Origin: Candidatus Shapirobacteria bacterium
Lineage (GTDB): Bacteria > Patescibacteriota > Microgenomatia > UBA12405
Direction: 5' to 3'
Assembly (NCBI GenBank): GCA_030698565.1
Contig: JAUYJS010000003.1
Span: 76,187-140,186, forward strand
DNA length: 64,000 bases
This document shows positions 2,423-61,098 of the stretch, piece by piece. The position numbers were made by a program, and so were the translations under genes. The notes under the pieces are model-generated. The model was not told the origin of the DNA, searched no databases, and saw only the letters and a list, made by a program, of their open reading frames with translations. How positions within the stretch are numbered: the stretch's first letter is position 1; each line of letters begins with the position of its first letter.

Positions 2423-4408
2423 AAATCAATTTCTGGAATTATTAAATTTGGCTTTCTATTTTTGTTATTTTTTACGCCCTTAATTTTTACCTCCTTCAAC
2501 TCCGAGCTATTCGAATTGCCCAAAATGTATTTTGTTTATTTAATTACTCTAATTATTCTAACTTTACATTTAATCAATTTTTTTCAAAATAAATCCAAAC
2601 TATTATCCACCAATCTTCTTGTTTTACCTCTTTTTCTTTTTTTACTGTCCCAAGGTATTTCCACATATTTTTCCGTCGACCAGCATACCTCAATTTTTGG
2701 CTATTACTCTCGTCTCAACGGCGGTTTACTTTCACTGATCTCTTATATAATTCTTTTTTTAATTTTAACTGTTTATATCGATAAGCCTTTTATTCAAAAA
2801 ATTATCAATGTTTCCCTTATTTCCGGATTAATCGTTTCTATTTATGCCATTGCCGAACATTTTGGTATCGATAAAGATATTTGGCTTCAAGATGTCCAAA
2901 ACCGAGTCTTCTCCACTTTCGGTCAACCCAACTGGTTAGCCGCTTACCTTTGCATTTTGATTCCCATTGGTTTGGCTCAATCTGTTGAATATTTCTATAA
3001 AAAAAATAAAATTTTATTTTTAATTTATGATCTATCGGCTATCATTTTTTTTCTAGCTTTACTTTTTACAAAATCTAAATCCGGTATTATCGCCGCCATT
3101 ATTTCTCTAGGTTTATTTTTTATTTTAAGTTTTCTCAAAAACAAAAAGTCTCTAAAATTATTAATTCTTAATTCTTCATTATTAATTCTTTTCTCATTAT
3201 CAATCAACAATCCCATCAAAGATCTCCTATTTCCCCAAAAACTAAAGATTGCAGATTCTAAAATTGAAAATTTAAATATTACTCCCTCCGAAGATATCCG
3301 AAAAATTGTCTGGAAAGGAGCCTTAGAACTTTGGCAAAAATTTCCTCTATTTGGTACTGGAGTTGAAACTTTTGCCTATTCCTATTACTGGACCCGACCC
3401 GCCGAGCACAACTTAACTTCCGAATGGGATTTCCTTTACAACAAAGCTCATAACGAATATATTAACTACTTGGCCACCACGGGTGCCCTTGGCTTACTCA
3501 CCTACTCTATTTTCATCGGTGCCATTCTCCTCTTATTTGTTAAAACCATATTAAAAGATAAAGATAATATCTATTTAAATTTAGGTTTATTAACCGCTTT
3601 TATTTCCATTTTAATTACCAATATTGCCGGATTTTCGGTCGTTGTTATATCTCTTTATTTTTTCTTACTTCCAGTATTAATCTCCAAAGATAAATCCAGT
3701 TTTATATTTTCTTTTAATTTCCCTAAATTTATTTCGGCTACCAGTTCTATTGTCATTATAATAGTAGCTTTATTCCTTGGTCAAAAAACTCTTTTCTTTT
3801 ACCTGGCTGACATTACTTATGCCCAAGCTTCTGAATATGACGATCAAAATAAATATAATTTAGCCTATGAACGAATCCAAGAAAGTATTGCCTACAGAAA
3901 TGACGAACCTGTTTATTTAGATAAAGCTTCTTCAGTTACAGCCAAAATGGCTCTTGTCGCTCACAGTCAAAAGAATGACGCCTTAACTCAAAAATATATT
4001 TACGAAACCGAAAATTATTCTAATCAAGCCTTACTTATATCTCCCGCCAATATTAATTTCTGGAAAGAAAGAGCTCAAAGTTATTATTATCTTTCCAGTA
4101 TTGACCCAAAATACTTTCAAAATGCCATAACCGCCCTATCCAAAGCCACAATATTAGCCCCAACAGATGCCAAATCATTTTATTTATTAGGTAAATTTTT
4201 GCAAACAGCCAATCTATCCGACAAAGCCATTCCTTTTTACCAAAAAGCAATTGAACTCAAGTTTAATTACGATTATGCTTATTTTGATTTAGCCAAAATA
4301 TATTTCGATTCTAAAAACTATTCCGAAGCCAAAAAGTATTTTCAAATGGTCTTAAAATATGCTCCTGACAGCCAGGAAAGTAAAGATTATTTAAATAAAA
4401 TTAAGTAA
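2423..4408 (+). CDS. Polytopic membrane protein with an O-antigen ligase (Wzy_C)-like domain and C-terminal TPR repeats
   Basis: Multi-TM N-terminus, then WKGALELWQKFPLFGTGVETF...NKAHNEYINYLATTGALGL (O-antigen ligase/Wzy_C signature), then TPR-like repeats (AIPFYQKAIELKFNYDYAYFDLAKIYF). The start at 2423 is preferred over 2351, which overlaps mreB. Confidence 0.55.
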   Translation, partial: KSISGIIKFGFLFLLFFTPLIFTSFNSELFELPKMYFVYLITLIILTLHLINFFQNKSKLLSTNLLVLPLFLFLLSQGISTYFSVDQHTSIFGYYSRLNGGLLSLISYIILFLILTVYIDKPFIQKIINVSLISGLIVSIYAIAEHFGIDKDIWLQDVQNRVFSTFGQPNWLAAYLCILIPIGLAQSVEYFYKKNKILFLIYDLSAIIFFLALLFTKSKSGIIAAIISLGLFFILSFLKNKKSLKLLILNSSLLILFSLSINNPIKDLLFPQKLKIADSKIENLNITPSEDIRKIVWKGALELWQKFPLFGTGVETFAYSYYWTRPAEHNLTSEWDFLYNKAHNEYINYLATTGALGLLTYSIFIGAILLLFVKTILKDKDNIYLNLGLLTAFISILITNIAGFSVVVISLYFFLLPVLISKDKSSFIFSFNFPKFISATSSIVIIIVALFLGQKTLFFYLADITYAQASEYDDQNKYNLAYERIQESIAYRNDEPVYLDKASSVTAKMALVAHSQKNDALTQKYIYETENYSNQALLISPANINFWKERAQSYYYLSSIDPKYFQNAITALSKATILAPTDAKSFYLLGKFLQTANLSDKAIPFYQKAIELKFNYDYAYFDLAKIYFDSKNYSEAKKYFQMVLKYAPDSQESKDYLNKIK

Positions 4409-23213: not shown

Positions 23214-23278
23214 AGTTAGGAATCTCTAAATTATAACATCCAAAATGGCTTAAACTTCCAAAAATAAATTAATTAATT

Positions 23279-23354
23279 TGGTGGACCTAAGGGGACTCGA
23301 ACCCCTGACCTTCCCCATGCCATGGGGACGCGCTACCAACTACGCTATAGGCCC
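23279..23354 (-). tRNA. tRNA-Ala (anticodon GGC), copy 1, CCA encoded
   Basis: Reverse complement gggccta...tccccATGGCATgggga...ggggttcgagtcccc-taggtcc-a-cca. G3:U70 Ala identity pair present. Confidence 0.85.
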
Positions 23355-23395
23355 AAATTTTATATGAAAGTTCTTTTTATCAATTTTGCGTAAAT

Positions 23396-24001
23396 TTACA
23401 AAACTTCCCGAGGTAATCTATAAATATAAATTCCTAATCCTGTTGAAACAATCGACATCACAATAAAGATGATTGGATAGCCAAAAAATTGAATTAATAC
23501 TCCACCTATTAAAGCCGCAAAACCTGTTACTATCGCCGCAATTCCTTCCCATCTCCCCCATTCAATAATAGAATTCTCTTTACTGGTGTGACTAGAATAT
23601 ACAGAGTCGAACGCTGGTGTACCAATAGCCGTAGCCACACCCCAAAGAACCTGTGTCAAAATCAGCTGAGGAATATTATTCATCAAAGCATAACTAAAAA
23701 ATACTCCTCCTCTTAAAACATAACCCAAAGCAATCAATAACTCCGGCTCTTTCACCTTTAATTGCCAATTAGAAAATAAAAATATTAAAATACCGCTAAC
23801 CATAGAATATACCGCCCAAGACAATCCAGCAAAAGCAATATTTCCGCCTATCTCTTGAACAAAAACAGCATAAAATGGCGCAAACAAATTCAAAATAAAT
23901 ACCAATATTGAATTAGCTGTGACCAAGATGGTTAAGCTTTTATTAATCCGCGTATGAGGAAAAACAAAACCAAATATCGTTTTTAATTTATTAATTACCA
24001 T
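23396..24001 (-). CDS. Half-size MFS-transporter-like membrane protein (about 200 aa, 6 TM; resembles the C-terminal half of an MFS transporter); possibly a gene fragment
   Basis: Six hydrophobic segments with MFS-like loop motifs. The start at MVINKLK abuts the tRNA-Ala copy 2. The track ORF extends into the tRNA and is trimmed here. Confidence 0.4.
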   Translation of the reverse strand: MVINKLKTIFGFVFPHTRINKSLTILVTANSILVFILNLFAPFYAVFVQEIGGNIAFAGLSWAVYSMVSGILIFLFSNWQLKVKEPELLIALGYVLRGGVFFSYALMNNIPQLILTQVLWGVATAIGTPAFDSVYSSHTSKENSIIEWGRWEGIAAIVTGFAALIGGVLIQFFGYPIIFIVMSIVSTGLGIYIYRLPREVL

Positions 24002-24004
24002 TTG

Positions 24005-24077
24005 TGGACCTAAGGGGACTCGAACCCCTGACCTTCCCCATGCCATGGGGACGCGCTACCAACTACGCTATAGGCCC
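24005..24077 (-). tRNA. tRNA-Ala (anticodon GGC), copy 2, identical to copy 1 over 73 nt but without encoded CCA
   Basis: Same 73-nt sequence as 23282-23354. The 3' flank reads ACAAAT instead of ACCAAAT. Confidence 0.8.
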
Positions 24078-24174
24078 GAATCAAACTCACTATTTTAACA
24101 AATTTTCCCACATAACCATATATCCAATCAGACACTCCCCAACTTTTATATGATCTGATATTATTAAGGCACTT

Positions 24175-25059: not shown

Positions 25060-25154
25060 GTTAAGTAACTTTAGTTACTTTTTCATACCGCTTGACATTT
25101 ATTATATTTTTTATATAATAGCCCATAATTAATTTTTATAAATTAAAAGCAGGT

Positions 25155-25837: not shown

Positions 25838-25863
25838 CAAACTTAATAAGTTATTATAAATAT

Positions 25864-25902
25864 ATCCTATAACTTGACATTATTATATAAATTTTATATA
25901 AT
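25864..25902 (+). promoter_or_regulatory. Promoter repeat copy 1: ATCCTATAAC-TTGACA-17 nt-TATAAT
   Basis: TTGACA at 25874-25879 and TATAAT at 25897-25902 with exact 17-nt spacing. The upstream ATCCTATAAC block is shared with copies at 26725, 26916 and 26985. Confidence 0.6.
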
Positions 25903-25957
25903 CCCACTTAAATTAATCAATCTAAACTTAAAGCGTTTTTATCTGATTAATTTAAAA

Positions 25958-26036
25958 GTTCTTTAACAAACCGTAAACTTTGAAATTTCGAATCCGATTG
26001 TGAGTACACACTGTGTATTTAGAACCGGATTCGAAA
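25958..26036 (+). promoter_or_regulatory. 5'-UTR element: conserved motif TCTTTAACAAACCGTAAACTTT followed by a 12-bp perfect inverted repeat with a nested palindrome
   Basis: The motif is also present at 27096-27119. Arms atttcgaatccg (25986-25997) and cggattcgaaat (26025-26036) enclose tacaca-c-tgtgta. Confidence 0.45.
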
Positions 26037-26058
26037 TATGTTTTTGGAGGTTGAGACA

Positions 26059-26637
26059 ATGCTTAAGAAGATGATTTCCGTTTTCTTGATTCTGGGTTTA
26101 GTGTTTATCACCCGGTCTGTCCCAGTTTTTGCTGGCGGTACTTCCGATAACCCCGGAAGCTACTACGTCGCACCGGTCAGTATTATCCTAACTTCAAATG
26201 GAAATGCCAGCCTCAATGCCAACGTCTTACTACCATACGGCACAATGGCTGAGATGGGCGACGAAGTCTACTATTCCACTATCAACTCTTTTGACATCCC
26301 AATGAAGGCCCTAGATTCACTAAAAGTCTTTGATCCTGTCAGTATGGTCGTTACCAGGGTTACTTACTCCGGCGTCAATACTCCAGCATCATTCGTCTCG
26401 ATTCCCATTGTAAAGATCAACGTCCCATACAACTACCAGGCTTGGAAGATGACCTACATCGACATCAAGTGCAATGAGGATTACACCTCCTGCACCGGCG
26501 GCTGGTCAATCACCCGATACCTGGGCGGCAATATCTACAAATTGACCCTTGAAAGGGGTAGCACCTTAATCATCCAACCAACCGACGATATCCTCAACAA
26601 TCGGCTTTTGCCACCCATCTTAGCCCAAATAGGCTAA
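26059..26637 (+). CDS. Secreted hypothetical protein, GC-rich relative to the genome
   Basis: SD ggagg 8 nt upstream. Signal peptide MLKKMISVFLILGLVFITRSVPVFAGG. Composition is clearly above the local background. The start at 26059 is preferred over the track's 26038. Confidence 0.55.
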   Translation: MLKKMISVFLILGLVFITRSVPVFAGGTSDNPGSYYVAPVSIILTSNGNASLNANVLLPYGTMAEMGDEVYYSTINSFDIPMKALDSLKVFDPVSMVVTRVTYSGVNTPASFVSIPIVKINVPYNYQAWKMTYIDIKCNEDYTSCTGGWSITRYLGGNIYKLTLERGSTLIIQPTDDILNNRLLPPILAQIG

Positions 26638-26724
26638 TTTCCCACCGGAACCAAAGGAGCGTCGAAGTTCTACTTCGACCTCCTTCCCTTTCGGGGGAAA
26701 ATCTTCAAAGTTTACGGTGTACAT

Positions 26725-26763
26725 ATCCTATAACTTGACATTATTAAACATTACTGTTACACT
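26725..26763 (+). promoter_or_regulatory. Promoter repeat copy 2 (ATCCTATAAC-TTGACA-17-TACACT)
   Basis: TTGACA 26735-26740. A -10-like TACACT at 26758-26763. Confidence 0.45.
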
Positions 26764-26905
26764 ACTTCAGTTCATTAAAAATTAGACAAAAATAAATACC
26801 AAAGGAGAGATGTTGGGGTGGGCTCCTCTAAAGATCTTCACTCCATTTCTCCTTTGCTATTTATATAATATTTTAAAAAAACCTCCATTAATTTGGAGGT
26901 TTTTT
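26764..26905 (+). ncRNA. Candidate small RNA (or 22-aa micro-ORF) between promoter repeat 2 and a strong bidirectional terminator
   Basis: About 140 nt with no ORF of 60 aa or more. A 13-bp near-perfect inverted repeat caaaggagaGatg...catttctcctttg. Terminator aaaaaaacctcca-ttaatt-tggaggtttttttt at 26872-26905. Confidence 0.35.
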
Positions 26906-26915
26906 TTGGTCCCCT

Positions 26916-27023
26916 ATCCTATAACGACTGACATTATTAATTAAATTCCTTCATCCAGCTCTGGTTTGCAAATTGTGTTTTGTTATCCTATAACTTGATT
27001 TTTTTACCATTTAATGCTATAAA
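26916..27023 (+). promoter_or_regulatory. Promoter repeat copies 3 (degenerate: ATCCTATAACGACTGACATTATTA) and 4 (ATCCTATAAC-TTGATT-17-TATAAA)
   Basis: Copy 4: TTGATT 26995-27000 and TATAAA 27018-27023 with 17-nt spacing. Confidence 0.45.
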
Positions 27024-27277
27024 CATCCATAGCAAGAAATTGCTTGTAAGTTGATTATATTTTAGACAATGCGTCTAATTCTCATAATCAATTTAGCTCT
27101 TTAACAAACCGTAAGACTTTTGTTGAAAAAAGAATATCTCATTACATTTAGGCTTGTGTAGAAGAATGATGATGAAATTTTGGAAGAAAAAAATTGGGTA
27201 ATAAAACCCATTCACATAGGCCCCGGCCCCGGCAGAGATCCAATTTTTTTTGCGTAATACGCAAAGGAGGAATTTTC

Positions 27278-28189
27278 ATGTCCGCACCCGGAACAACACC
27301 GACCCGTACCCGCAGGTCTCTTAATTGGCTCACGCGTCACTGGTTCCCAATCCTGATGGTGATGATCGCGCTGGCGGTGCTAGTAGTTTGGCTATTCGTA
27401 TGGCATCCATGGAAGACCACCACTGCCCCGGCACCCGTTGTACCTGCAACTTCCACTACTGCTGTCACTGTTCCAGGAATCGATACTCTGACTGAAGCGG
27501 TCAAGGGAAACACGAAGGCGACGTCCGAAAACACCACTGCGACAATCGACAACACGGCAGCTACAAAGGAGAACACAACGACCTTGAAAAGCAACACCGA
27601 CAAGGTGATTGCTACTGCACCAGCTGCACCTGCACCGGCTCCTGCGCCTACCGTCGTTTACGTCCCGATCCATGTGTCTGCTCCTACTCCTGTTGTTACC
27701 GAATGGGTTACTGAACATGAACTGGACCTGACCCCAAACAAGGGCCATAGAATGTATCAGGTTAGATACAATAATGGAAGAAGAACCGAAGAAATTCGGT
27801 ACTTCACTCCCGAGAGATATATTACTCTCGAGGGAGACATTACTACTCCAACTTCTACCGTCGTCTATGTCCCGACCCCTGCACCTGCTCCGGCTCCCAC
27901 TGGCAACGACTGCCAAGAGTGGACAAAGAACACTAATGGCTCAATGAGTTGGGTCGGCCCAACTGACGGTACGATGAGTATTTGTCAGACGGGGACATGG
28001 CTCGACTGGATTCGCGCCGGGCACACGGCTGTTTTCAGCGTCTCCGTTCCGGGGACACTGGAAATCACCACCGGTTCTTATTCCACCCAAGTCACCGGGA
28101 ATGTGATCACCTACACGGTGATCAACAGTTCCGGCCCTAGTGGCGGCTTCCGCTGGACCCCTCAACAAGGGTACGGCTGGAGACGCTAA
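27278..28189 (+). CDS. GC-rich membrane-anchored Thr/Pro/Ala-rich protein with an internal repeat (hypothetical)
   Basis: SD aaaggagg 7 nt upstream. N-terminal TM anchor (WFPILMVMIALAVLVVWLFVW). The internal repeat APAPAPAPTVVYVP appears twice. Composition is far more GC-rich than the surrounding low-GC genome. The start at 27278 is preferred over the track's 27194. Confidence 0.55.
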   Translation: MSAPGTTPTRTRRSLNWLTRHWFPILMVMIALAVLVVWLFVWHPWKTTTAPAPVVPATSTTAVTVPGIDTLTEAVKGNTKATSENTTATIDNTAATKENTTTLKSNTDKVIATAPAAPAPAPAPTVVYVPIHVSAPTPVVTEWVTEHELDLTPNKGHRMYQVRYNNGRRTEEIRYFTPERYITLEGDITTPTSTVVYVPTPAPAPAPTGNDCQEWTKNTNGSMSWVGPTDGTMSICQTGTWLDWIRAGHTAVFSVSVPGTLEITTGSYSTQVTGNVITYTVINSSGPSGGFRWTPQQGYGWRR

Positions 28190-28277
28190 AAGTCTAAAAG
28201 TCTTACGATTTCAAAAAGGTGGCAGGGTCCTGCAAGCTCTTCGGATTTATCCGAATCTTGTAGTTTCCTGTCCCCTG

Positions 28278-28328
28278 TTCCATTATCGATGTGTGTCGAT
28301 ACTGATGAGTCCAAAAGGACGAATGGAA
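28278..28328 (+). ncRNA. Hammerhead-ribozyme-like motif (type III topology) with a U15.1:A16.1 variant helix III. Ends 6 nt before the GT2 start codon.
   Basis: uucca-U-UAUCGA-ugugug-UCGAUA-CUGAUGA-GUCC-aaaa-GGAC-GAA-uggaa. Helix I, the CUGAUGA core, the GUCC/GGAC helix II and GAA are the same as the canonical copy at 59460-59520. Helix III is fully compensated but carries the noncanonical 15.1/16.1 pair. Confidence 0.45.
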
Positions 28329-28333
28329 ATTTT

Positions 28334-29254
28334 ATGAAAAAAAATAAACAATCTTTAATATCCGTAATTATGCCGGTCTTTAACGCCGACAAATATTTAA
28401 AAGATGCTATAGACAGCATTTTAAATCAAACCTACTCTAATTTTGAATTTATTATTATTGACGATTCTTCAACTGATAATTCTTGGTCCATCATCAAAAA
28501 CTACCAAAAAATAGACAAACGAATTGTTGCCCGAAAAAATAGAAAAAATTCAGGTGTAGCTACAACTTTAAATAAAGCCTTAAAACTTTGCCACGGTGAA
28601 TATGTTGCTCGAATGGACGCCGATGATATTTCTTTGCCAAAACGTTTCCAAATTCAGCTGCACTACTTAAAAAAACACCCCGAAATTGTCGGTGTTGGCA
28701 CCCAAGTAAATATTATTAATAATTCCAACAAAATTACCGGTAAACGCTATTTTCCTACCACCACCAAAGATTGTTACCAATTTTTAATGATCACATCTCC
28801 TATTCAACATCCCACACTAATGGTCCGCACTCAAACCATAAAAAAATATCAATATTCAGCCAACTACAAAACAGCCGAAGATTGGGATCTTTACTTTAAA
28901 TTAGTTCAAAATAATCAATTAAATAATATCAATAAAACTCTTTATAATTATCGACAAAACTTTGGTAGCAACGGCTACAAAAACATCAAAAAAGCATTTA
29001 TTTTAATATTCAAAATTAGATTAAATGCCATTTTAAAACTAAACTATCATCCTTCAATAAAAGGACTTATTATTACTTTTCTCCAAGCCATTCTGGTTTT
29101 TTCCCTACCAGAAAAATTGGTTTTTAATCTATTCACTCTCTGGCGAGTCAGACAACTTTATTTTTTCGAAAATATTCAACTCCCACAATTATTACCAAAC
29201 AATTTAAAAGCCAACCAGCCCAAACTATTTGATTTGGCCAATAATCAGCCTTAA
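28334..29254 (+). CDS. Family 2 glycosyltransferase
   Basis: ISVIMPVFNADKYL...NFEFIIIDDSSTDNS (GT2 DxD region). The start at 28334 (MKKNKQ) is preferred. Its 3' end overlaps the convergent gene by about 107 nt. Confidence 0.7.
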   Translation: MKKNKQSLISVIMPVFNADKYLKDAIDSILNQTYSNFEFIIIDDSSTDNSWSIIKNYQKIDKRIVARKNRKNSGVATTLNKALKLCHGEYVARMDADDISLPKRFQIQLHYLKKHPEIVGVGTQVNIINNSNKITGKRYFPTTTKDCYQFLMITSPIQHPTLMVRTQTIKKYQYSANYKTAEDWDLYFKLVQNNQLNNINKTLYNYRQNFGSNGYKNIKKAFILIFKIRLNAILKLNYHPSIKGLIITFLQAILVFSLPEKLVFNLFTLWRVRQLYFFENIQLPQLLPNNLKANQPKLFDLANNQP

Positions 29255-35163: not shown

Positions 35164-35898
35164 TTAGGTCAGTTTGGCAATTTCATTATTCAAAAACATT
35201 ATAGTTTCTTCTTTTAAGGTTTTTCTAATTTTACTAAAAGTTTCAGTTGGCAAAAGAGTATTTAAGTCCTGATCAATTAATGTTTGATTAATTTTTTGTT
35301 TGATAAAATCACAAAGATAAATAAGGTATTCTTTAGTTTGTGTTCCTGTTCTTTCAATTATTACTTGTTCATTATATTTTAAATTTTTTAAGAAAAAATA
35401 ATGAATATCGTAGATATCTCGACCAGCAATTGATTTTTTACGGTCATAGCGATCTTTAACAGCCACCAGTTTATTTGCAAAGATACTTTCTTGGCTTTGA
35501 CAATTAACTGTCCGATTAATTTCCGGCAAAAACACCGGTACATAAACATTTGACTTTACAATAAAATTAAGGGCATCAATTTTTAAAGTGTTTCTTTCAT
35601 TTAGTAAATTAGAATATTTAAGAAAAAATTCTAGGGCTTTTTGACTTTCTTGTTGTAAATTAAATCCAAGTTTGTCAAAAATTTTATGAAATTCAAGTCT
35701 TAACTCTTTTTCGTCTACTCCAGTTTTAAGGTCAAAATCAAGATCAACAGAAAATCTATTAAGGATTCCCATCATTGAAGCGCAAGTGCCACCTTTGAAA
35801 AATAAAGAATTAGACAAAAGAGGGTTGTCTACGATTTCAGTTAAGGTTCTAAGTAAATAAGCTTTGTGAATAGCGTCTGCTGGTTTAACTATAATCAT
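35164..35898 (-). CDS. AbiEii/AbiGii-family nucleotidyltransferase toxin (type IV TA/abortive infection)
   Basis: FFKGGTCASMMG motif and the overall AbiEii family pattern. Its start overlaps the upstream partner by 4 nt. Confidence 0.65.
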   Translation of the reverse strand: MIIVKPADAIHKAYLLRTLTEIVDNPLLSNSLFFKGGTCASMMGILNRFSVDLDFDLKTGVDEKELRLEFHKIFDKLGFNLQQESQKALEFFLKYSNLLNERNTLKIDALNFIVKSNVYVPVFLPEINRTVNCQSQESIFANKLVAVKDRYDRKKSIAGRDIYDIHYFFLKNLKYNEQVIIERTGTQTKEYLIYLCDFIKQKINQTLIDQDLNTLLPTETFSKIRKTLKEETIMFLNNEIAKLT

Positions 35899-36437
35899 AG
35901 ATAGTTGATTTCTTTTTGATAACTTTTAACTAAATCCCAATCAATGATACTATCAGCATCAAAATGATAACTTGGTTGAAAATATAACATGTCGGCAATT
36001 GCCCGCTCAATAGTGGCAATAAAAACACCTTTATCATTTTGAATAATTCCGACACTATTGTTAAGACATTGAGGTTTTAATTGTCTTACTAAATAGGAGA
36101 CTTCATTAATATTAAAATTAGCAGGAGAACTAGAAACAAAAGTGATTTTAGTGGGAGATTGATTGATTATCCCATTTTTAGACAAAATCGATTCTGTACT
36201 TAGATAACTAAATTGATTTATGGCTCTAAAGCCAATTTCTATCGGATCCAATTGATCTAGAGGAACGATGCTGTAAAAACCTTTCTGGATACTAATCAAA
36301 ACCTTTTTTTTAATAAACCTGGCAATAGTTTTATAAAGTGTATTTTGATTTGAAATATTCCAAAGAACTTTCAGGTCTGAGGTATGAAATAACCTTTGTG
36401 CTTGTTGGATTAAAATACCAATTTTATCTTTAGTCAT
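35895..36437 (-). CDS. AbiEi-family antitoxin/transcriptional regulator (partner of AbiEii)
   Basis: 180 aa immediately upstream of and translationally coupled to the AbiEii-like gene. N-terminal wHTH-like region. Confidence 0.55.
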   Translation of the reverse strand: MTKDKIGILIQQAQRLFHTSDLKVLWNISNQNTLYKTIARFIKKKVLISIQKGFYSIVPLDQLDPIEIGFRAINQFSYLSTESILSKNGIINQSPTKITFVSSSPANFNINEVSYLVRQLKPQCLNNSVGIIQNDKGVFIATIERAIADMLYFQPSYHFDADSIIDWDLVKSYQKEINYL

Positions 36438-47881: not shown

Positions 47882-48478
47882 ATGCCAAAAACTTCAGCTA
47901 AAACTAACAAAAGAGAATTTTTATTTAAGCTTTCCAATCAAGAGCCCAGCATTGACGCCGCTTGGTATATTATTAACACCTATTCCGGTCACGAGTATAA
48001 AGTCATTGAAGCTCTAAAGACCAGGATTAGAACCATGGGTTTGGAAGATCATATTTTTCAAGCTGTCGTTCCAATTCAAACCAAAATGGTTATTCGCCGT
48101 GGTCAAAAAATTAAGTCTCAAGAAAAAACTTTTCCAGGTTATGTTTTAATTCAAATGATTTTAACCGACAATTCCTGGGTCACAGTCCGAACCACTCAAG
48201 GTGTCACTGGATTCGTAGGTATTGAAAGCAAACCGTCCCCCATTTCCCAAAAAGAAGTTGACAAAATTCTAAAAGTTACCGAAGAAGATAAGCCAAAATA
48301 TCAAGCTCCATTTGCTATCGGCGATGTAGTCAAGGTTACCAGTGGTCCATTTGCTGATTTTATTGGTACTATTGATACTATCGATCAGGAAAAAGGCAAA
48401 ATCCGAGTTCTTGTTTCCTTCTTCGAAAGAGAAACTCCAGTCGAATTAGACTTTTTACAAGTTACTAAAGAATTATAA
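47882..48478 (+). CDS. nusG: Transcription termination/antitermination factor NusG
   Basis: NGN domain plus C-terminal KOW (VKVTSGPFADFIGTIDTID...GKIRVLVSFFERETPVEL). Confidence 0.85.
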   Translation: MPKTSAKTNKREFLFKLSNQEPSIDAAWYIINTYSGHEYKVIEALKTRIRTMGLEDHIFQAVVPIQTKMVIRRGQKIKSQEKTFPGYVLIQMILTDNSWVTVRTTQGVTGFVGIESKPSPISQKEVDKILKVTEEDKPKYQAPFAIGDVVKVTSGPFADFIGTIDTIDQEKGKIRVLVSFFERETPVELDFLQVTKEL

Positions 48479-48482
48479 AATT

Positions 48483-48908
48483 ATGGCCAAAAAAATAAAA
48501 ACAATTGTTAAATTAGCTCTTCAAGCTGGTACAGCTAACCCAGCTCCTCCAGTCGGTACCGCATTAGGTCCTCATGGTATCAAGATCATGGATTTCTGCA
48601 ATGAATTCAATGAAAAAACCAAAGATATGCGCGGCTCCTTGATTCCAGCAGTTATTACTATCTACGAAGATAGGTCTTTTGATTTCATTATCAAAAAGCC
48701 ACCAGTTTCCGACACTATCAAAAAAGTTAGTGGTATTACCAAAGGTGCTGTTACAACCGGCCGAGAAAAAGTTGGTAAATTAACCATGGCTCAAGTCGAA
48801 GATATTGCCAAAAATAAATTAGTTGATTTAAATACCAAAGATTTAGAAGCGGCCAAGCGTTCTGTCATGGGCACCGCCAAATCCATGGGTGTCGAAATCG
48901 TCGATTAA
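48483..48908 (+). CDS. rplK: 50S ribosomal protein L11
   Basis: MAKKIKTIVKLALQAGTANPAPPVGTALGPHG. Confidence 0.9.
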   Translation: MAKKIKTIVKLALQAGTANPAPPVGTALGPHGIKIMDFCNEFNEKTKDMRGSLIPAVITIYEDRSFDFIIKKPPVSDTIKKVSGITKGAVTTGREKVGKLTMAQVEDIAKNKLVDLNTKDLEAAKRSVMGTAKSMGVEIVD

Positions 48909-48925
48909 AAATTAAACAAAATCAT

Positions 48926-49729
48926 ATGAGCAAAACCACTCAAGAAAACAAAAAAAAATCTCTCAAAGAGAAAAAAAACAAAGTGGAAGAGACTTCGCAA
49001 ACCAAAAAGTCTCGAAACGCAACTGTAGGGGCGAATCAAGATTCGCCTATTGCCACGGAAACTGCAGCTGAAATCATTACTGATGATGTCCAAAGCGAAA
49101 CCAAAGCATCAGAGGAAACAGTTAAATCAACCAGAGAAGCCAAAGTCAGAGGCAAAAGATACAAGGCCGCCAAAGCAAAAATTGACGTCACTAAGTATTA
49201 TCCTCTCCGAGAAGCTATTGATTTAGTTAAAGAAACTTCTTTATCTAAATTTGATGGTAAAATCGAAGCCCATGTCACCAGTTTAGATATTGGTGTTGTC
49301 GGCGAAATTACTTTTCCCCATCTTGAAACTGCCACCAAAAAAATAGTCGTTTTAAATGACACTATTTTGGCAGAAATCAAAGAAGGTAAAATTAATTTTG
49401 ATATTTTAATTGCCACTCCAACCACCATGCCAAAACTTTTACCTTTTGCCAAAACTCTTGGTCCAAAAGGTTTAATGCCAAACCCAAAAAATGGTACCTT
49501 AACCGATAAGCCAGAAGAATCTGTCAAGAAATTATCAGTTGCCAAAACTGTAATCAAGACCGAAAAGAAAGCTCCGGTTATTCATATTGTTGTTGGAAAA
49601 GTTTCCCAACCAATTAATGAATTAATGTCCAACATTGATGAATTAATCAAAGTTGTCAAACCAAGCAAAATCAAAAAATTGGCTATTTGTGCCACCATGG
49701 GTCCATCAGTCAAAGTCGAAATCAAATAG
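48926..49729 (+). CDS. rplA: 50S ribosomal protein L1 with an approximately 60-aa Lys/Glu-rich N-terminal extension
   Basis: L1 core (GKRYKAAKAKIDVTKYYPLREAIDLVKE...). The first 60 or so residues are a low-complexity charged extension. Confidence 0.85.
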   Translation: MSKTTQENKKKSLKEKKNKVEETSQTKKSRNATVGANQDSPIATETAAEIITDDVQSETKASEETVKSTREAKVRGKRYKAAKAKIDVTKYYPLREAIDLVKETSLSKFDGKIEAHVTSLDIGVVGEITFPHLETATKKIVVLNDTILAEIKEGKINFDILIATPTTMPKLLPFAKTLGPKGLMPNPKNGTLTDKPEESVKKLSVAKTVIKTEKKAPVIHIVVGKVSQPINELMSNIDELIKVVKPSKIKKLAICATMGPSVKVEIK

Positions 49730-58315: not shown

Positions 58316-58352
58316 ATCCTATATTTCAATTTATATGTAAATTTGGTATAAT
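58316..58352 (+). promoter_or_regulatory. Promoter with an extended -10 (TGgTATAAT) preceded by an ATCCTATA block, then a 5'-UTR 15-bp hairpin
   Basis: atcctatatttcaatttatatgtaaatttggtataat. Further downstream, cggtaacacgtttct...agaaatgtgttaccg (14/15 complementary). Confidence 0.45.
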
Positions 58353-58509
58353 CCGGGCGTTTACTAGAATTCAAAAAATAAAGCATTTATTGAATTTTTT
58401 AAGCACCTTAAAATTTGCAGAACACTATTTTTCGGTAACACGTTTCTGAATAGACTAAAGTATTTAGAAATGTGTTACCGAATCTAATTTTGAAAGGAAT
58501 GAATCTTCA

Positions 58510-59400
58510 ATGGAAATCAGAACGATACCTGTTTCAAGTTCAAAAATGCACCCAATGACGCGACCCGGTTACTTAGCCAATATGTTTCAACAAACCGGTG
58601 GATTCCAGTCAATGCTCCTTGCCAATTATCTGGCTCAAGAACACCAACGAGGCGAAGGTATCAAGAGTCACACTGAAGTCTTATCTGTGATCATCGACGG
58701 TCAACGGTTGGAAATGACCTTGGATCAAATCAATGATCATTTGGCTAAGCTATCAGGGAATATTCCTCAACTTGAAGCCGTCGTTTCCTGGGGAAGAGAT
58801 CCATACCAAAAAGTTCTCTCTTGGATACATGGCCTACCCAACTCCTCACACGAACGTCCGATGATTCAGGAAGGACCACACTTGGTCCTGGCTCTTTATA
58901 GCTATGCCAAGGATGGCCTTCGTCTTTACCGGACTCTTCAGAGAAGGCCGTTCGACGTTAAAATTGATACGGTCCGGGGGTTCACTGGCACAACAGAAGA
59001 AATGTATGGCAACACCAACCCTGACGTCATTCTCCAACACATTGTCAAAACCATCGGCGACGAAGCTGGTCAAAAGTGTCTTGACATCCGGGACATCGTT
59101 TTCCTCGGCGCCCATCATGTCAACTCTTCTTTTGTCCAATCAAGAACCGCTCTCTTCGGGATCGAAATCGACCGAGACAGATTCCTGGAAAGCAATCGTG
59201 TGTTTACATCTGAAGAAGCAAAAAGGATGGAGCGACAGTACCAACAGCAGGGTTTACTCAGTCAAATTATTGAACTGACTATCCCTCAGTTTTTGGCTTA
59301 CGGATGTCACCCCGACGTCTGTCGTGACTTCACGGCCGATGCCCCCCATCAAGCAATATTGTCTGCTCATCTCCTCAACCTCCTTAAACCTTCCAACTAA
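58510..59400 (+). CDS. GC-rich hypothetical cytoplasmic protein (296 aa)
   Basis: The ORF is much more GC-rich than its neighbours. It has its own promoter and is followed by a strong terminator. Confidence 0.5.
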   Translation: MEIRTIPVSSSKMHPMTRPGYLANMFQQTGGFQSMLLANYLAQEHQRGEGIKSHTEVLSVIIDGQRLEMTLDQINDHLAKLSGNIPQLEAVVSWGRDPYQKVLSWIHGLPNSSHERPMIQEGPHLVLALYSYAKDGLRLYRTLQRRPFDVKIDTVRGFTGTTEEMYGNTNPDVILQHIVKTIGDEAGQKCLDIRDIVFLGAHHVNSSFVQSRTALFGIEIDRDRFLESNRVFTSEEAKRMERQYQQQGLLSQIIELTIPQFLAYGCHPDVCRDFTADAPHQAILSAHLLNLLKPSN

Positions 59401-59428
59401 GAGAATCGGGTTCTCCCGATTCTCTCCC
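59401..59428 (+). terminator. Intrinsic terminator-like hairpin (11-bp perfect stem)
   Basis: agagaatcggg-ttct-cccgattctct. Confidence 0.6.
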
Positions 59429-59459
59429 CCTCCGGGGGTCAATGTAATTAGTGTTCTGT

Positions 59460-59520
59460 AAATATGGTCTATCGAAAAATCGATACTGATGAGTCCCGTA
59501 GGACGAAACCAAATATTTTT
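59460..59520 (+). ncRNA. Canonical type III hammerhead ribozyme motif
   Basis: aauaugg-U-C | UAUCGA-aaaa-UCGAUA CUGAUGA GUCC-cgua-GGAC GAA A-ccaaauauu. Every core position is canonical: CUGAUGA, G10.1:C11.1, G12A13A14, A15.1:U16.1, and a GUC cleavage triplet. Confidence 0.6.
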
Positions 59521-60015: not shown

Positions 60016-60150
60016 TGCTATAATAACCCCATCTTAACCGAAGACAGTAGGCTTGGCTAATCACCATTGAAAAGTCCTACCGAGGCAAAAGCAATTTGTT
60101 TTTATTTTGCGCCTCGATCTTCGAGGTTTTTTTTATTTTAATAACAAATT
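60016..60150 (+). promoter_or_regulatory. rplJ promoter (TGcTATAAT) and L10-leader-like structured 5' UTR ending in an attenuator terminator
   Basis: Extended -10 at 60016-60024. Hairpins gtagg...cctac. gcgcctcgatcttcgagg followed by a T-run at 60109-60134, just before the rplJ ATG. Confidence 0.5.
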
Positions 60151-60666
60151 ATGCCAAATCAAAAAAAAGTAGCCAAAGTCGAAGATGTAGTTGAAAAACT
60201 AAACAAAGCTAAATCAGCCGCTTTAGTTCAATATCAGGGTTTAAATGCCGCCGATATTTCTGCTCTCCGCGATCAAATCAAACAAAATGGTGGTCTCATG
60301 GAAGTCACCAAAAACACTCTTATTACCCGTGCTTTAGCCAAATTTGGTATCACCTTACCTGAAACCCTCACCGGTCCAACATCCATTGCTTACTGTAATG
60401 ACGATGAAATCGCTCCTCTAAAAGAAATTGACAAGGTCAATAAAACCAAAGATGTCACCGCCTTTAAATACGGTATTTACGGCAAAAAACTTTTATCAGT
60501 CGATGAATTAAAAATCTTTTTAAGCTTACCTTCCAAATCCGATCTCTTGGCTCGATTGGTCGGCGGCTTGGTCAACCCATTGCAACGTTTAGTTTATGCA
60601 ATGCGTTACAACCAAACTCAATTAGTTTTAACCTTAAAAGCTATTGCTGAAAAGGAAAACAAATAA
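60151..60666 (+). CDS. rplJ: 50S ribosomal protein L10
   Basis: MPNQKKVAKVEDVVEKLNKAKSAALVQYQGLNAADISALRDQIKQNGGLMEVTKNT. Confidence 0.88.
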   Translation: MPNQKKVAKVEDVVEKLNKAKSAALVQYQGLNAADISALRDQIKQNGGLMEVTKNTLITRALAKFGITLPETLTGPTSIAYCNDDEIAPLKEIDKVNKTKDVTAFKYGIYGKKLLSVDELKIFLSLPSKSDLLARLVGGLVNPLQRLVYAMRYNQTQLVLTLKAIAEKENK

Positions 60667-60702
60667 ATTATTAATTTTTAATTATTAATTAAATATAAAA
60701 TT

Positions 60703-61098
60703 ATGGCAGAAGAAACCAAAATTAGTGCAAAACTACAGAAGATTATTGACTCTGTATCCGAATTATCAGTTCTCGAACTTTCCGAGCTCGTTAAAGCTTT
60801 GGAAGTAGCCTTCGACGTCAAAGCTGCTGCTGCTGCTCCTGCCGCTGCTGCTACCGCTGGCGAAAGTGCTCCTGCAGCCGAAGAAAAAACCGAGTTTGAA
60901 GTCGTTATGACTTCTGCTGGTACCAACAAAATTGCTGTCATTAAGGCTATCCGAGAATTCAAACCGGAATTAGGTCTTAAAGAAGCTAAAGATTTAGTTG
61001 ATGCCGCTCCTGCTAACTTAGGTACAATGAAAAAAGAAGTCGCCGCTGAAGCCAAATCCAAAATGGAAGCCGCTGGTGCGCAAGTGGAACTAAAATAA
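60703..61098 (+). CDS. rplL: 50S ribosomal protein L7/L12
   Basis: N-terminal dimerisation domain, an Ala/Pro hinge and a C-terminal domain ([11 protein letters not shown]...[12 protein letters not shown]). Confidence 0.9.

Follow-up and report, generated by a model that had tools for sequence, protein, structure and literature searches.

For clustered hammerhead ribozymes in bacteria, which flank single genes of varying identity, cleavage of polycistronic RNA has been reported both in vitro and in vivo (Perreault et al. 2011, PMC3088659). For those prophage arrays, the cutting of long transcripts into single-gene messenger RNAs (mRNAs) was proposed, as it is here for a 64-kb stretch (the window) of a chromosome of Candidatus Shapirobacteria, a candidate phyla radiation (CPR) lineage. 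Three GC-rich genes of the window (open reading frames ORF1, ORF2 and ORF3) each stand at the centre of a unit: units 1 and 2 lie between galU and an LPXTG-protein gene on one side and a GT2 glycosyltransferase gene on the other, and unit 3 follows thyX, 30 kb off. This island is read here, with a probability of about 0.6, as a tandem set of modular expression cassettes, insulated by ribozymes and stabilised by panhandles, with cargo alleles exchanged through recombination in the conserved flanks. Each cassette starts with a promoter bearing the ATCCTATAAC element, followed by a leader of 150-250 nucleotides (nt) in which a 5' hairpin and a conserved box come first, then the left arm of a helix formed over a long range, and last a long hairpin reaching to the Shine-Dalgarno sequence (SD). 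The GC-rich, lineage-restricted ORF, the right arm of the helix and a 3'-end element complete it; for the latter, units 2 and 3 have a hammerhead and unit 1 has an intrinsic terminator.

Like the prophage hammerheads of Perreault et al. (2011, PMC3088659), those of the window are located between genes, the identity of these genes varies, and U15.1-A16.1 variants of a kind that cleaves are represented. Unlike them, they belong to a CPR core chromosome with no prophage genes in 64 kb, and they come with a conserved promoter element, a box and a 5'/3' helix adjoining the ribozyme, the upstream gene being systematically GC-rich and hypervariable. These traits were not described in PMC3088659 or in the hammerhead and CPR literature found, and the literature search gave no paper linking hammerhead ribozymes with CPR.

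Integron arrays also resemble the cassettes, with tandem, mostly orphan cargo of odd composition, a structured repeat after each gene and a fixed platform with varying content. They differ in that a separate promoter belongs to each cassette, catalytic RNA forms the 3' element (a terminator in unit 1), the repeats bracket the ORF and exchange apparently proceeds via homologous flanks. A search among the window ORFs of at least 110 amino acids (aa) found neither an integrase, a transposase or a reverse transcriptase nor any phage structural gene, which weakens the DNA-transposon, integron, diversity-generating retroelement (DGR) and prophage readings; as for integrons, this search was not complemented by a formal attC search. 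By their defining features, the cassettes are neither integrons nor retrozymes nor DGRs.

RiboJ-type synthetic insulators, attributed to Lou et al. (2012), reportedly consist of a hammerhead and a hairpin placed before the ribosome-binding site. The similarity lies in a hammerhead that would remove the upstream RNA context, with its fold staying at the 5' end of the downstream mRNA and the SD in a defined context. It extends to about 25-30 of 137 CPR loci, in which the hammerhead is followed, at 10 nt or less, by a GTTCTTT(A/G)A(A/C)AA box, a long hairpin, the SD and the ATG. The present elements are natural, the SD of unit 2 is the 3' strand of stem III, and the ribozyme would also form the 3' end of the cargo mRNA beside the long-range helix.

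The string CTGATGAGTCC-N4-GGACGAA is found just 3' of ORF2 and ORF3, with zero occurrences expected by chance. A CPR covariance model was available from 104 aligned hammerheads, none from this species, that originate from a CTGATGAGTCCAAAAGGACGAA scan in which each species was represented by one genome. In these 104 sequences, stems I and III are paired at 96.5% of their positions, with a covariation of 0.79 vs. 0.17 after shuffling and 0.05-0.12 with the pairing slid. Applied to the whole window with filters off, the model gave exactly two matches, the next best scoring 12.9 bits. Both matches show the type III topology (three helices, stem III open) in full-length alignments to Rfam RF00008 and to the CPR model, the RF00008 alignment of positions 59462-59514 reaching 41.1 bits (E = 3.6e-7). 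Unit 3 possesses the full catalytic core, CTGATGAG-TCC-N4-GGA-CGAAA at 59486, with the A15.1-U16.1 pair. In unit 2 (core at 28302), CUGAUGA and G12-A13-A14 are present, position 15.1 is U, so that the core reads CGAAU, and the pair is flipped, with compensation, to U15.1-A16.1. Position N17 is H in both, namely U at 28283 and C at 59469. The same flip occurs in L006, L023, L099, L100 and L115 (4 of the 104 aligned sequences). A natural U15.1-A16.1 variant was found to cleave itself with lower efficiency, and activity is at least 10-fold lower in the cases tested (PMC3088659). The ribozymes of units 2 and 3 would add two members to the type III hammerhead class, of which one carries a core variant known for its low activity. 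An Rfam scan of the leaders and the window returned the two hammerheads and weak, terminator-driven matches only; in the cassette leaders it detected neither riboswitches nor further ribozymes such as twister, pistol or hatchet.

At the junction with GT2, the 3' strand of stem III in unit 2 (UGGAA, 28324-28328) is located 5-9 nt before the GT2 ATG (28334) and is the only SD-like sequence there. Purine-rich stem III 3' strands (UGGAA, AGGAA, AGGGA, AGGUU) also stand 5-10 nt before the next start codon in L012, L121, L125 and L007. From their position, these strands would serve as SD only after cleavage releases them, in the window as in the four other loci.

The galU-GT2 locus is syntenic in L007, L099, L020, L023, L036 and L050, where a common frame encloses a different cargo each time. 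Its order is that of a TCCTATAA-CTTGA promoter, the box, the left inverted-repeat arm (IR-L), the cargo, the right arm (IR-R), the hammerhead and the GT2 start codon, and in every leader of these relatives the box is directly 5' of IR-L. L007, with a GT2 that is 61% identical, carries two cassettes between galU and GT2, in which a TCCTATAATCTTGA promoter is followed by a leader (box, IR-L, hairpin), a GC-rich signal-peptide ORF, IR-R and a canonical hammerhead; its second ribozyme lies directly against the GT2 start codon, an arrangement also seen in the window. Some of the relatives' cargo proteins have in common a C-terminal domain of about 140 aa; no Pfam family was found for these proteins, and profile-profile comparison of ORF1 and ORF2 with the cargo family of L007, L023, L036, L050 and L099 gave probabilities below 1%. 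What apparently turns over is the cargo inside a resident frame, in distant relatives by divergence in situ or by replacement. As a side observation, metagenome-assembled genomes (MAGs) labelled 'uncultured Gammaproteobacteria' (L012, L023, L036, L042, L050 and L093) carry the same hammerhead subtype, and L023, L036 and L050 also have the TCCTATAA-CTTGA promoter and a hammerhead before GT2, at 33-40% GC. The Gammaproteobacteria labels of these MAGs are probably wrong.

Beyond this locus, a genome scan yielded at least 120 loci; stem II was fixed in the search pattern, so that the census is biased to one hammerhead subtype and represents a lower bound. Among the matches listed, 97 are labelled CPR, and the lineages include Saccharibacteria, Paceibacteria/Parcubacteria, Woese-, Shapiro-, Gottesman-, Kaiser-, Nomura- and Gracilibacteria, and others. 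In an ORF-independent meta-profile of about 125 loci, the GC content of the stretch between -500 and -100 nt from the hammerhead exceeded the mean of its locus by 0.065 to 0.085 (standard error 0.006-0.009), with an offset of about 0 elsewhere; the enrichment upstream of CPR hammerheads is significant (Wilcoxon p = 1e-16). Taken by ORF, the mean GC offset is +0.08 upstream of the ribozyme vs. +0.02 downstream. Cargo GC rises with host GC (slope 0.67, r = 0.61), the offset declining from +0.10 where host GC is low to +0.03 where it exceeds 0.54, which argues against a single external donor pool. Since 36 viral contigs of IMG/VR with the same hammerhead subtype (L128-L163) have no extended GC-rich segment, the enrichment belongs to the CPR chromosomal context and not to the ribozyme. 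These viral copies typically form a compact hairpin-ribozyme-gene junction, with a short GC-rich hairpin before the ribozyme (e.g. GTGTCTTCAAAGACAC) and an ATG 20-40 nt after it. Viral scans with the specific hammerhead pattern and with the leader motif described below gave nothing, or one chance match within a coding region, and metagenome scans with the leader pattern and the ORF2 family alignment gave nothing usable.

The leaders share a motif in their 5' untranslated regions (UTRs), found at 25960 and 27098 (2 matches vs. 0.01 expected) as part of a 20-nt block, AG(T/C)TCTTTAACAAACCGTAA, at 25957-25976 and 27095-27114. The motif consists of the conserved box, (G)TTCTTTAACAA (of the CUUUAACAA type), and, directly after it, the left arm of the long-range helix. 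In the leader of unit 3, only a weak CCUUAAAA-like stretch takes the place of the box. The long hairpin ending at the SD directly follows the left arm in units 1 and 3, and the 5' hairpin of unit 1 occupies the position that a hammerhead takes before the box in other CPR genomes. Long-range helices appear in the minimum free energy (MFE) folds of all three full predicted transcripts (1.0-1.25 kb), the mean pair probability being 0.545 for unit 2. Between unit 2 of the window and unit 2 of L007, the helix shows three compensatory double changes (ACCGTAAGAC/GTCTTACGGT vs. CCCGCAAGAT/ATCTTGCGGG). The helix has thermodynamic support and some support from covariation. CPR-wide, the inverted repeats around the cargo beat shuffled controls at 107 loci (Wilcoxon p = 1e-6), 22 of them with z of at least 2.5; most of these strongest loci have a right arm that stops at stem III, 22-29 nt ahead of CUGAUGA. 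A Saccharibacteria subfamily keeps a 12-nt repeat, GACAAGCAGAC / GTCTGCTTGTC, around different cargo (CTTTGACAAGCAGAC ... GTCTGCTTGTC-hammerhead), the cassette taking the form TGACAAGCAGAC...hammerhead.

Complementary flanks that close a long functional RNA are also seen in ribosomal RNA (rRNA) processing stalks and in panhandle viral RNAs; here, the closed molecule would be an mRNA, and the closure is coupled to a self-cleaving ribozyme. The helix could itself be an RNase III processing stalk of the kind found around 16S/23S rRNA instead of a panhandle, with RNase III cutting out the cargo mRNA and a hammerhead serving the downstream gene only. Helices of 15-23 base pairs (bp) bracketing a whole ORF would suit such a role, and in unit 2, unit 2 of L007, L023 and L099 the right arm lies 90-120 nt before the hammerhead, away from the ribozyme-made end. 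Many of the helices are, however, 12-15 bp in length, short for RNase III, and the right arm ends at stem III in most of the strongest cases; we consider the stalk unlikely.

Upstream of the leaders, the 22-mer ATCCTATAACTTGACATTATTA occurs exactly at 25864 and 26725, with a three-mismatch copy at 26985 and an indel copy, TATCCTATAACgacTGACATTATTA, at 26916 (at up to three mismatches, 3 matches in the window vs. 0.01 expected). It combines the ATCCTATAAC element with the -35 box of a promoter. Five of the six ATCCTATA copies in the 64 kb are at cassette promoters (25864, 26725, 26916, 26985 and 58316), and the sixth is within a tRNA-Ser gene. All cassette promoters carry predicted sigma-70-type -35/-10 hexamers at 16-18 nt spacing. 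The LPXTG/DUF11 gene, of normal GC, has a perfect consensus promoter (TTGACA-16-TATAAT at 25092) and no ATCCTATA, which makes TTGACATT..ATTAT partly generic and leaves ATCCTATAAC as the cassette-specific part. The ATCCTATAAC element is located at about -45 to -36 and is conserved across species; by this position it is probably a regulator or UP-type site, in which case co-regulation of the cassettes would be possible. The first-pass annotation of the window had reported the four 22-mer copies, the TTGACA-17-TATAAT and TTGATT-17-TATAAA geometry of copies 1 and 4, and a related block ahead of the GC-rich gene at 58316, all of which were found again, the last as ATCCTATA within the promoter of unit 3; the tie between 22-mer and promoters that it proposed also holds. 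Its shared UTR motif is present in both leaders, but the motif includes the IR-L arm, and the long-range pairing had been overlooked. The promoter and UTR family that it described does drive foreign-looking genes of secreted or anchored proteins, with unit 3 at 58.5 kb included; the hammerheads of units 2 and 3 had escaped it.

These repeats raise the question of mobility at the DNA level, the inverted repeats being terminal repeats or recombination sites (of the kind of miniature inverted-repeat transposable elements, insertion sequences or integrons) and the ATCCTATAAC 22-mer an attachment or target site. Inverted repeats indeed bracket every cargo gene, the 22-mer stands on both sides of unit 1, as a direct repeat of 861 bp, and has solo copies, the Saccharibacteria subfamily keeps its 12-nt repeat whatever the cargo, and a third cassette resides at an unrelated locus. 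Against it, no transposase, integrase or reverse transcriptase was found in the 64 kb and target-site duplications are absent. The repeats also differ between units of one genome and covary between species as an RNA helix does, where a protein-binding site would stay constant; IR-R adjoins the ribozyme cleavage site, and the 22-mer is a promoter with correct -35/-10 geometry. Mobile cassettes of this type therefore seem quite improbable. The positions of the features are given in Table 1.

Table 1. Features of the cassette units in the window (positions counted from the first nucleotide of the window; TSS, transcription start site; TM, transmembrane; GC3, GC content at third codon positions)
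Feature	Position	Strand	Details
Unit 1 promoter	25864-25902	+	ATCCTATAAC, TTGACA (25874-25879), 17 nt, TATAAT (25897-25902); 12/12; predicted TSS ~25909
Unit 1 leader 5' hairpin	25908-25955	+	TTAAATTAATCA / TGATTAATTTAA; present in MFE fold
Unit 1 box	25958-25969	+	GTTCTTTAACAA; first half of UTR motif
Unit 1 IR-L	25970-25984	+	ACCGTAAACTTTGAA; 15/15 complementary to 26704-26718; 15/15 MFE pairs, mean pair probability 0.975
Unit 1 long leader hairpin	25985-26037	+	directly before SD GGAGG (26045-26049)
ORF1	26059-26637	+	192 aa; signal peptide; GC3 0.59; orphan
Unit 1 IR-R	26704-26718	+	TTCAAAGTTTACGGT; partner of 25970-25984
Unit 1b promoter	26725-26763	+	second exact 22-mer; TTGACA-17-TACACT at 26735-26763, 10/12
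Structured non-coding element	26790-26868	+	AGGAGAGA..GGGTGGGCTCCTC..TTCTCCTTTG; 97-100% identity in L005
Intrinsic terminator	26875-26912	+	AAAAAAACCTCCA..TGGAGGTTTTTTTT
Degenerate solo 22-mer	26916-26939	+	indel copy; segment not alike in window and L005
Unit 2 promoter	26985-27023	+	ATCCTATAAC, TTGATT (26995), 17 nt, TGC-TATAAA; predicted TSS ~27030
Unit 2 box and IR-L	27097-27121	+	box CTCTTTAACAA; IR-L AAACCGTAAGACTTTT (27099-27121)
ORF2	27278-28189	+	303 aa; N-terminal TM anchor; T/P/A-rich repeats; GC3 0.55
Unit 2 IR-R	28196-28218	+	AAAAGTCTTACGATTTCAAAAAG; pairs with 27099-27121; 23 nt, 83%
Unit 2 type III hammerhead	28271-28332	+	70.3 bits, E = 2e-18 (CPR model); predicted cleavage 28283/28284, N17 = U
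Unit 3 promoter	58316-58354	+	ATCCTATA, TTTCAA (58326), 17 nt, TGG-TATAAT; predicted TSS ~58361
Unit 3 IR-L	58413-58430	+	ATTTGCAGAACACTATTT; 15/18 MFE pairs, mean pair probability 0.84; z = 6.4
Unit 3 long leader hairpin	58431-58482	+	before SD
ORF3	58510-59400	+	296 aa; signal peptide absent; GC3 0.48; orphan
Unit 3 IR-R	59446-59463	+	AATTAGTGTTCTGTAAAT; 18 nt, 89% complementary; adjoins hammerhead stem III
Unit 3 canonical type III hammerhead	59457-59516	+	40.6 bits, E = 2e-9 (CPR model); predicted cleavage 59469/59470 (between GUC and U)

Evidence for exchange comes from the comparison of strains. The contigs bearing the ORF1 and ORF2 homologues are those of sister strains with the same locus order, so that three alleles of ORF2 and two of ORF1 could be compared. 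Between the window and a sister strain, promoter and leader are 96.9-98.6% identical, the 3' UTR 98.9% and unit 1b 96.8%, vs. 83-85% for ordinary intergenic DNA; the unit 1 promoter alone is 97% identical to that of L005. Homology between the window and L002 starts exactly at CCTATAAC. The ORFs present the opposite picture: synonymous divergence (dS) is 0.65 for ORF1 vs. 0.11-0.15 for flanking genes, and 1.0-1.2 for ORF2 vs. 0.165 for GT2, galU, LPXTG and GT2 ranging from 0.11 to 0.17 in the same strain pairs. Cassette ORFs are thus 4-7 times as diverged as flanking genes, silent sites included. The ratios of non-synonymous to synonymous divergence (dN/dS) are 0.18 for ORF1 and 0.15-0.24 for ORF2; to judge from them, the cassette ORFs are real proteins under purifying selection. 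Along ORF1, identity is 0.53-0.62 in the 5' part and 0.97-1.0 over the last 80 nt and the 3' UTR. The ORF2 allele of L006 is a mosaic, in which window-like and L002-like blocks alternate (37 runs vs. 52.7 expected, p = 0.0006), for example with 14 consecutive sites of the L002 type and then 8 of the window type. The mosaic, together with conserved flanks and diverged ORFs, speaks for the exchange of old alleles via the flanks rather than for relaxed or positive selection.

High dS could in principle also arise with no exchange at all, if a DGR-like or another local mutator targeted the cargo ORFs for hypermutation. Such a mutator would leave the pattern seen, in which divergence stays within the ORF and stops sharply at the start codon and close to the 3' end. 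No reverse transcriptase was found in the window, however, and the repeat scans of the island gave no template/variable repeat pair; the dN/dS values show divergence filtered as in ordinary evolution, and the block-wise mosaic of the three ORF2 alleles indicates recombination. We give hypermutation very little credence. A DGR in particular was rejected, as a search of the window found no reverse transcriptase domain and the sole internal repeat is an in-frame protein repeat of ORF2. This repeat (27639-27705 / 27846-27912, 70% DNA identity) encodes TVVYVP...APAPAP segments, and the indels among ORF2 alleles are located in its Pro/Ala/Thr-rich linkers.

As regards composition, windowed GC is 0.43-0.51 at 26001-28500 and 0.46-0.47 at 58501-59500, vs. 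about 0.34 elsewhere. The synonymous sites carry this excess, with a GC3 of 0.48-0.59 in the cassette ORFs vs. 0.23-0.38 in host genes, L10 and L7/L12 included. GC skew on the + strand is about -0.2 to -0.5 throughout the window, independently of gene orientation, and is much weaker in the cassette ORFs (-0.06 to -0.17), as if these were out of equilibrium with the host mutational bias. Unusual strand disparity has been reported for a Microgenomates genome (PMC7143001). Two further GC bumps, at 41.5 kb and 63.5 kb, were rejected as cassettes and correspond to ordinary genes (SPFH/band-7-like, as judged from sequence, and HTH_17), and the view of the GC-rich segments as non-coding structured RNAs was rejected on account of dN/dS, in-frame indels and signal peptides.

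The first-pass annotation had seen in the locus a horizontally acquired, co-regulated surface-protein module. Its GC-rich ORFs do exceed host genes in windowed GC as well as GC3, and the ORF coordinates, the signal peptide, the TM segment and the LPKTG/DUF11 neighbour were all confirmed. The LPXTG gene itself, with a normal GC3 (0.23), a separate promoter and 96% between-strain identity, does not belong to the module. The surface-protein label fits this locus and not the family, since ORF3 is devoid of a signal peptide and hydrophobic segments are not enriched in the cargo; CPR-wide, N-terminal hydrophobic segments reach 22% vs. 22%, and a generally surface-directed cargo was rejected. Acquisition from outside would account for the foreign-looking composition, but is too simple for a resident frame at the galU-GT2 site with a cargo GC that tracks the host. 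A plain horizontal-transfer island would consist of foreign surface-protein genes with their own promoters and UTRs, hammerheads and inverted repeats being incidental, and the GC3 values, the weaker GC skew, the orphan ORFs and the promoter and leader motifs common to the units would all suit it. It is nevertheless improbable, as the same frame is kept at the same locus where GT2 is only about 60% identical, with different cargo each time, conservation of the flanks far exceeds that of neutral DNA, the stems of the hammerhead covary and the ribozyme keeps its position right before the GT2 start codon, cargo GC follows the host instead of one donor pool, and no donor homologues were found among 5.8 billion proteins.

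Searches with the cargo proteins were otherwise unproductive. ORF3 matched only itself, ORF2 has a single homologue (59% identity), and ORF1 has a single one (79% identity) among 1.84 billion representatives. No homologues beyond close relatives were found among the 5.8 billion proteins, and the phage or other-phylum relatives for which the earlier annotation had proposed a search did not appear. Pfam and PHROG scans of ORF1-ORF3 gave no family and one weak Zot-like match that was judged meaningless, and exact-protein look-ups with the start codons as called here returned no record. AlphaFold2 run on ORF3 with no alignment gave an unusable model (mean pLDDT 32.6). Of 20 cargo proteins sampled CPR-wide, 14 have no Pfam family; the others comprise two NUDIX and single Csx3-like, receiver-like, UDPGP, GH113 and PALP-fragment matches.

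Put together, the cassettes could work as follows. The consensus promoters would drive strong transcription through the cargo gene, and the hammerhead would cut the read-through RNA, leaving a cargo mRNA with a defined 3' end and a 2',3'-cyclic phosphate. In unit 3, where the downstream gene is convergent, cleavage would simply form the 3' end, 6 nt beyond the long-range helix. In unit 2, the cut, about 65 nt downstream of the helix, would part the cargo from GT2, whose mRNA would then start with a 5'-OH and retain the ribozyme fold. The GT2 SD, on the 3' strand of stem III, would be freed only by this cleavage, because the 5-bp helix remaining after it is held only in trans. Panhandle, 5' hairpins and a GC-enriched body may together yield a long-lived, exonuclease-shielded mRNA. 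The ribozyme would act as a natural insulator, allowing the cargo to be replaced with the neighbours undisturbed; as the frame is constant and insulated, cargo alleles would be replaceable by homologous recombination and may pass between lineages through the conserved leader and 3' flank. Such flank recombination would explain ORFs that are mosaic, highly diverged and still selected. Biased gene conversion at a recombination hot spot, selection for stable mRNA, or the two together may account for the GC excess.

Tandem hammerhead arrays, which are common in other CPR genomes, suggest a further possibility, namely circular or retrozyme-like RNAs in which hammerhead-bounded units are excised and ligated into circular mRNAs. 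Near-identical hammerheads in tandem were noted in L041, L042, L119, L008, L047, L085, L016 and L007, mostly 390-1400 nt apart (about 4 kb in L008). In several arrays, the stem III strands of successive copies are mutually compatible after double cleavage, which would permit ribozyme re-formation and possibly circularisation. With retrozymes and viroid-like circular RNAs, the cassettes have in common type III hammerheads, units of about 1 kb and a pairing that would join the two ends, and the arrays of L041, L042, L119, L047, L085 and L007 (390-1400 nt) are in keeping with excision. The window units differ in having protein-coding cargo, their own promoters and at most one hammerhead, at the 3' end (none in unit 1). 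Given this arrangement, their 5' end would be a triphosphate and not a 5'-OH. A reverse transcriptase was not found in the window, and circular products were sought in bacterial arrays and went undetected (Perreault et al., PMC3088659). Circular mRNAs are for these reasons a most improbable account of the window.

Several observations weigh against the cassette reading. We infer cleavage, transcript ends, mRNA stability, promoter activity and exchange from sequence. In the long-range helices, G-U pairs number 14 vs. 10 A-C mismatches, counts by which an RNA helix is not separable from a DNA-level repeat. Both hammerheads score below the RF00008 gathering threshold of 48.5 bits (41.1 for unit 3, 17.8 for unit 2), so that a search at that threshold gave no match in the window. 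The flipped 15.1-16.1 pair would lower the activity to be expected of unit 2. Unit 1 has no hammerhead, and the ribozyme is for that reason not obligatory for a cassette. A strictly anchored test of box-hammerhead complementarity was marginal (p = 0.054); a pairing of GUUCUUU in the box with AAAGGAC of stem II, a stem fixed by the search pattern, is possible. The hypermutation alternative discussed above, in which exchange has no part, belongs on the same side of the balance.

A structured element (26790-26868) lies after the second 22-mer promoter and before the strong terminator. Its consensus is AGGAGAGA..GGGTGG(G)CTCCTC..CTCC..TTCTCC(T/C)TTG, with other copies in L005 (2745-2825), L020 (~4045-4125) and L050 (~2440-2525); by an alignment made by eye, it is homologous to stretches within the cassette leaders of L020 and L050. 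The window and L050 differ in the outer helix by a compensatory A-U to G-C change. No Rfam match was obtained for the element, which could be an attenuator, a riboswitch-like leader or a small RNA. Transcripts of units 1 and 1b probably end at the terminator that follows, and the degenerate 22-mer behind it looks like a remnant promoter.

The remaining genes of the window are housekeeping genes and an AbiEii-type toxin-antitoxin pair. The AbiEii-type nucleotidyltransferase toxin gene (35164-36437, - strand; Pfam E = 3.6e-18) has an upstream 180-aa ORF as its likely antitoxin, and the pair is the sole recognisable defence or addiction module of the window, besides small HTH/NikA-like genes and a duplicated tRNA-Ala. 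This duplication is an 81-nt direct repeat, 98% identical (23278-23358 and 24001-24081, - strand), each copy with a complete tRNA-Ala(GGC). It encloses a 723-bp segment with a truncated MFS-like gene (23396-24046), whose annotated start is inside the second tRNA copy, and it looks like an integration or duplication scar at a tRNA gene. The nusG-rplK-rplA and rplJ-rplL clusters (47882-49729 and 60151-61098), usually contiguous, are about 10.4 kb apart here. Ddl, a Mur ligase, NUDIX, thyX, cassette unit 3 and a small NikA-like/RHH gene are among the genes that separate them, and an intact L10 leader (RF00557) is present at 60020-60142.

In a wider and tentative reading, possible rather than probable, the elements belong to a CPR ribozyme-bounded gene-cassette system, in which a resident platform (ATCCTATAAC promoter, CUUUAACAA box, helix and hammerhead) would receive orphan genes by recombination, with GC shaped by biased conversion or by selection for ultra-stable mRNA. 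Saccharibacteria are reported to be genetically tractable and naturally competent (PMC10633639), and natural competence is also reported elsewhere (PMC10187176). If the wider reading is true, tandem arrays might yield panhandle or even circular mRNAs, and the system would be an RNA-defined counterpart of integron arrays, by which ultra-small episymbionts vary their accessory or surface proteins.

Bacterial self-cleaving ribozymes are common and their roles largely unexplained; here, the hammerhead sits in a repeatable, conserved expression architecture, which predicts end formation, insulation, cleavage-dependent SD release and closure of the mRNA by 5'/3' pairing. In the CPR-wide link between this ribozyme and GC-rich cargo genes of fast turnover, recombination or selection for mRNA stability may have shaped composition, and the link would provide a natural precedent for the ribozyme insulators of synthetic biology. 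In organisms that are hard to annotate, the hammerhead is a sequence handle for variable accessory and surface genes.

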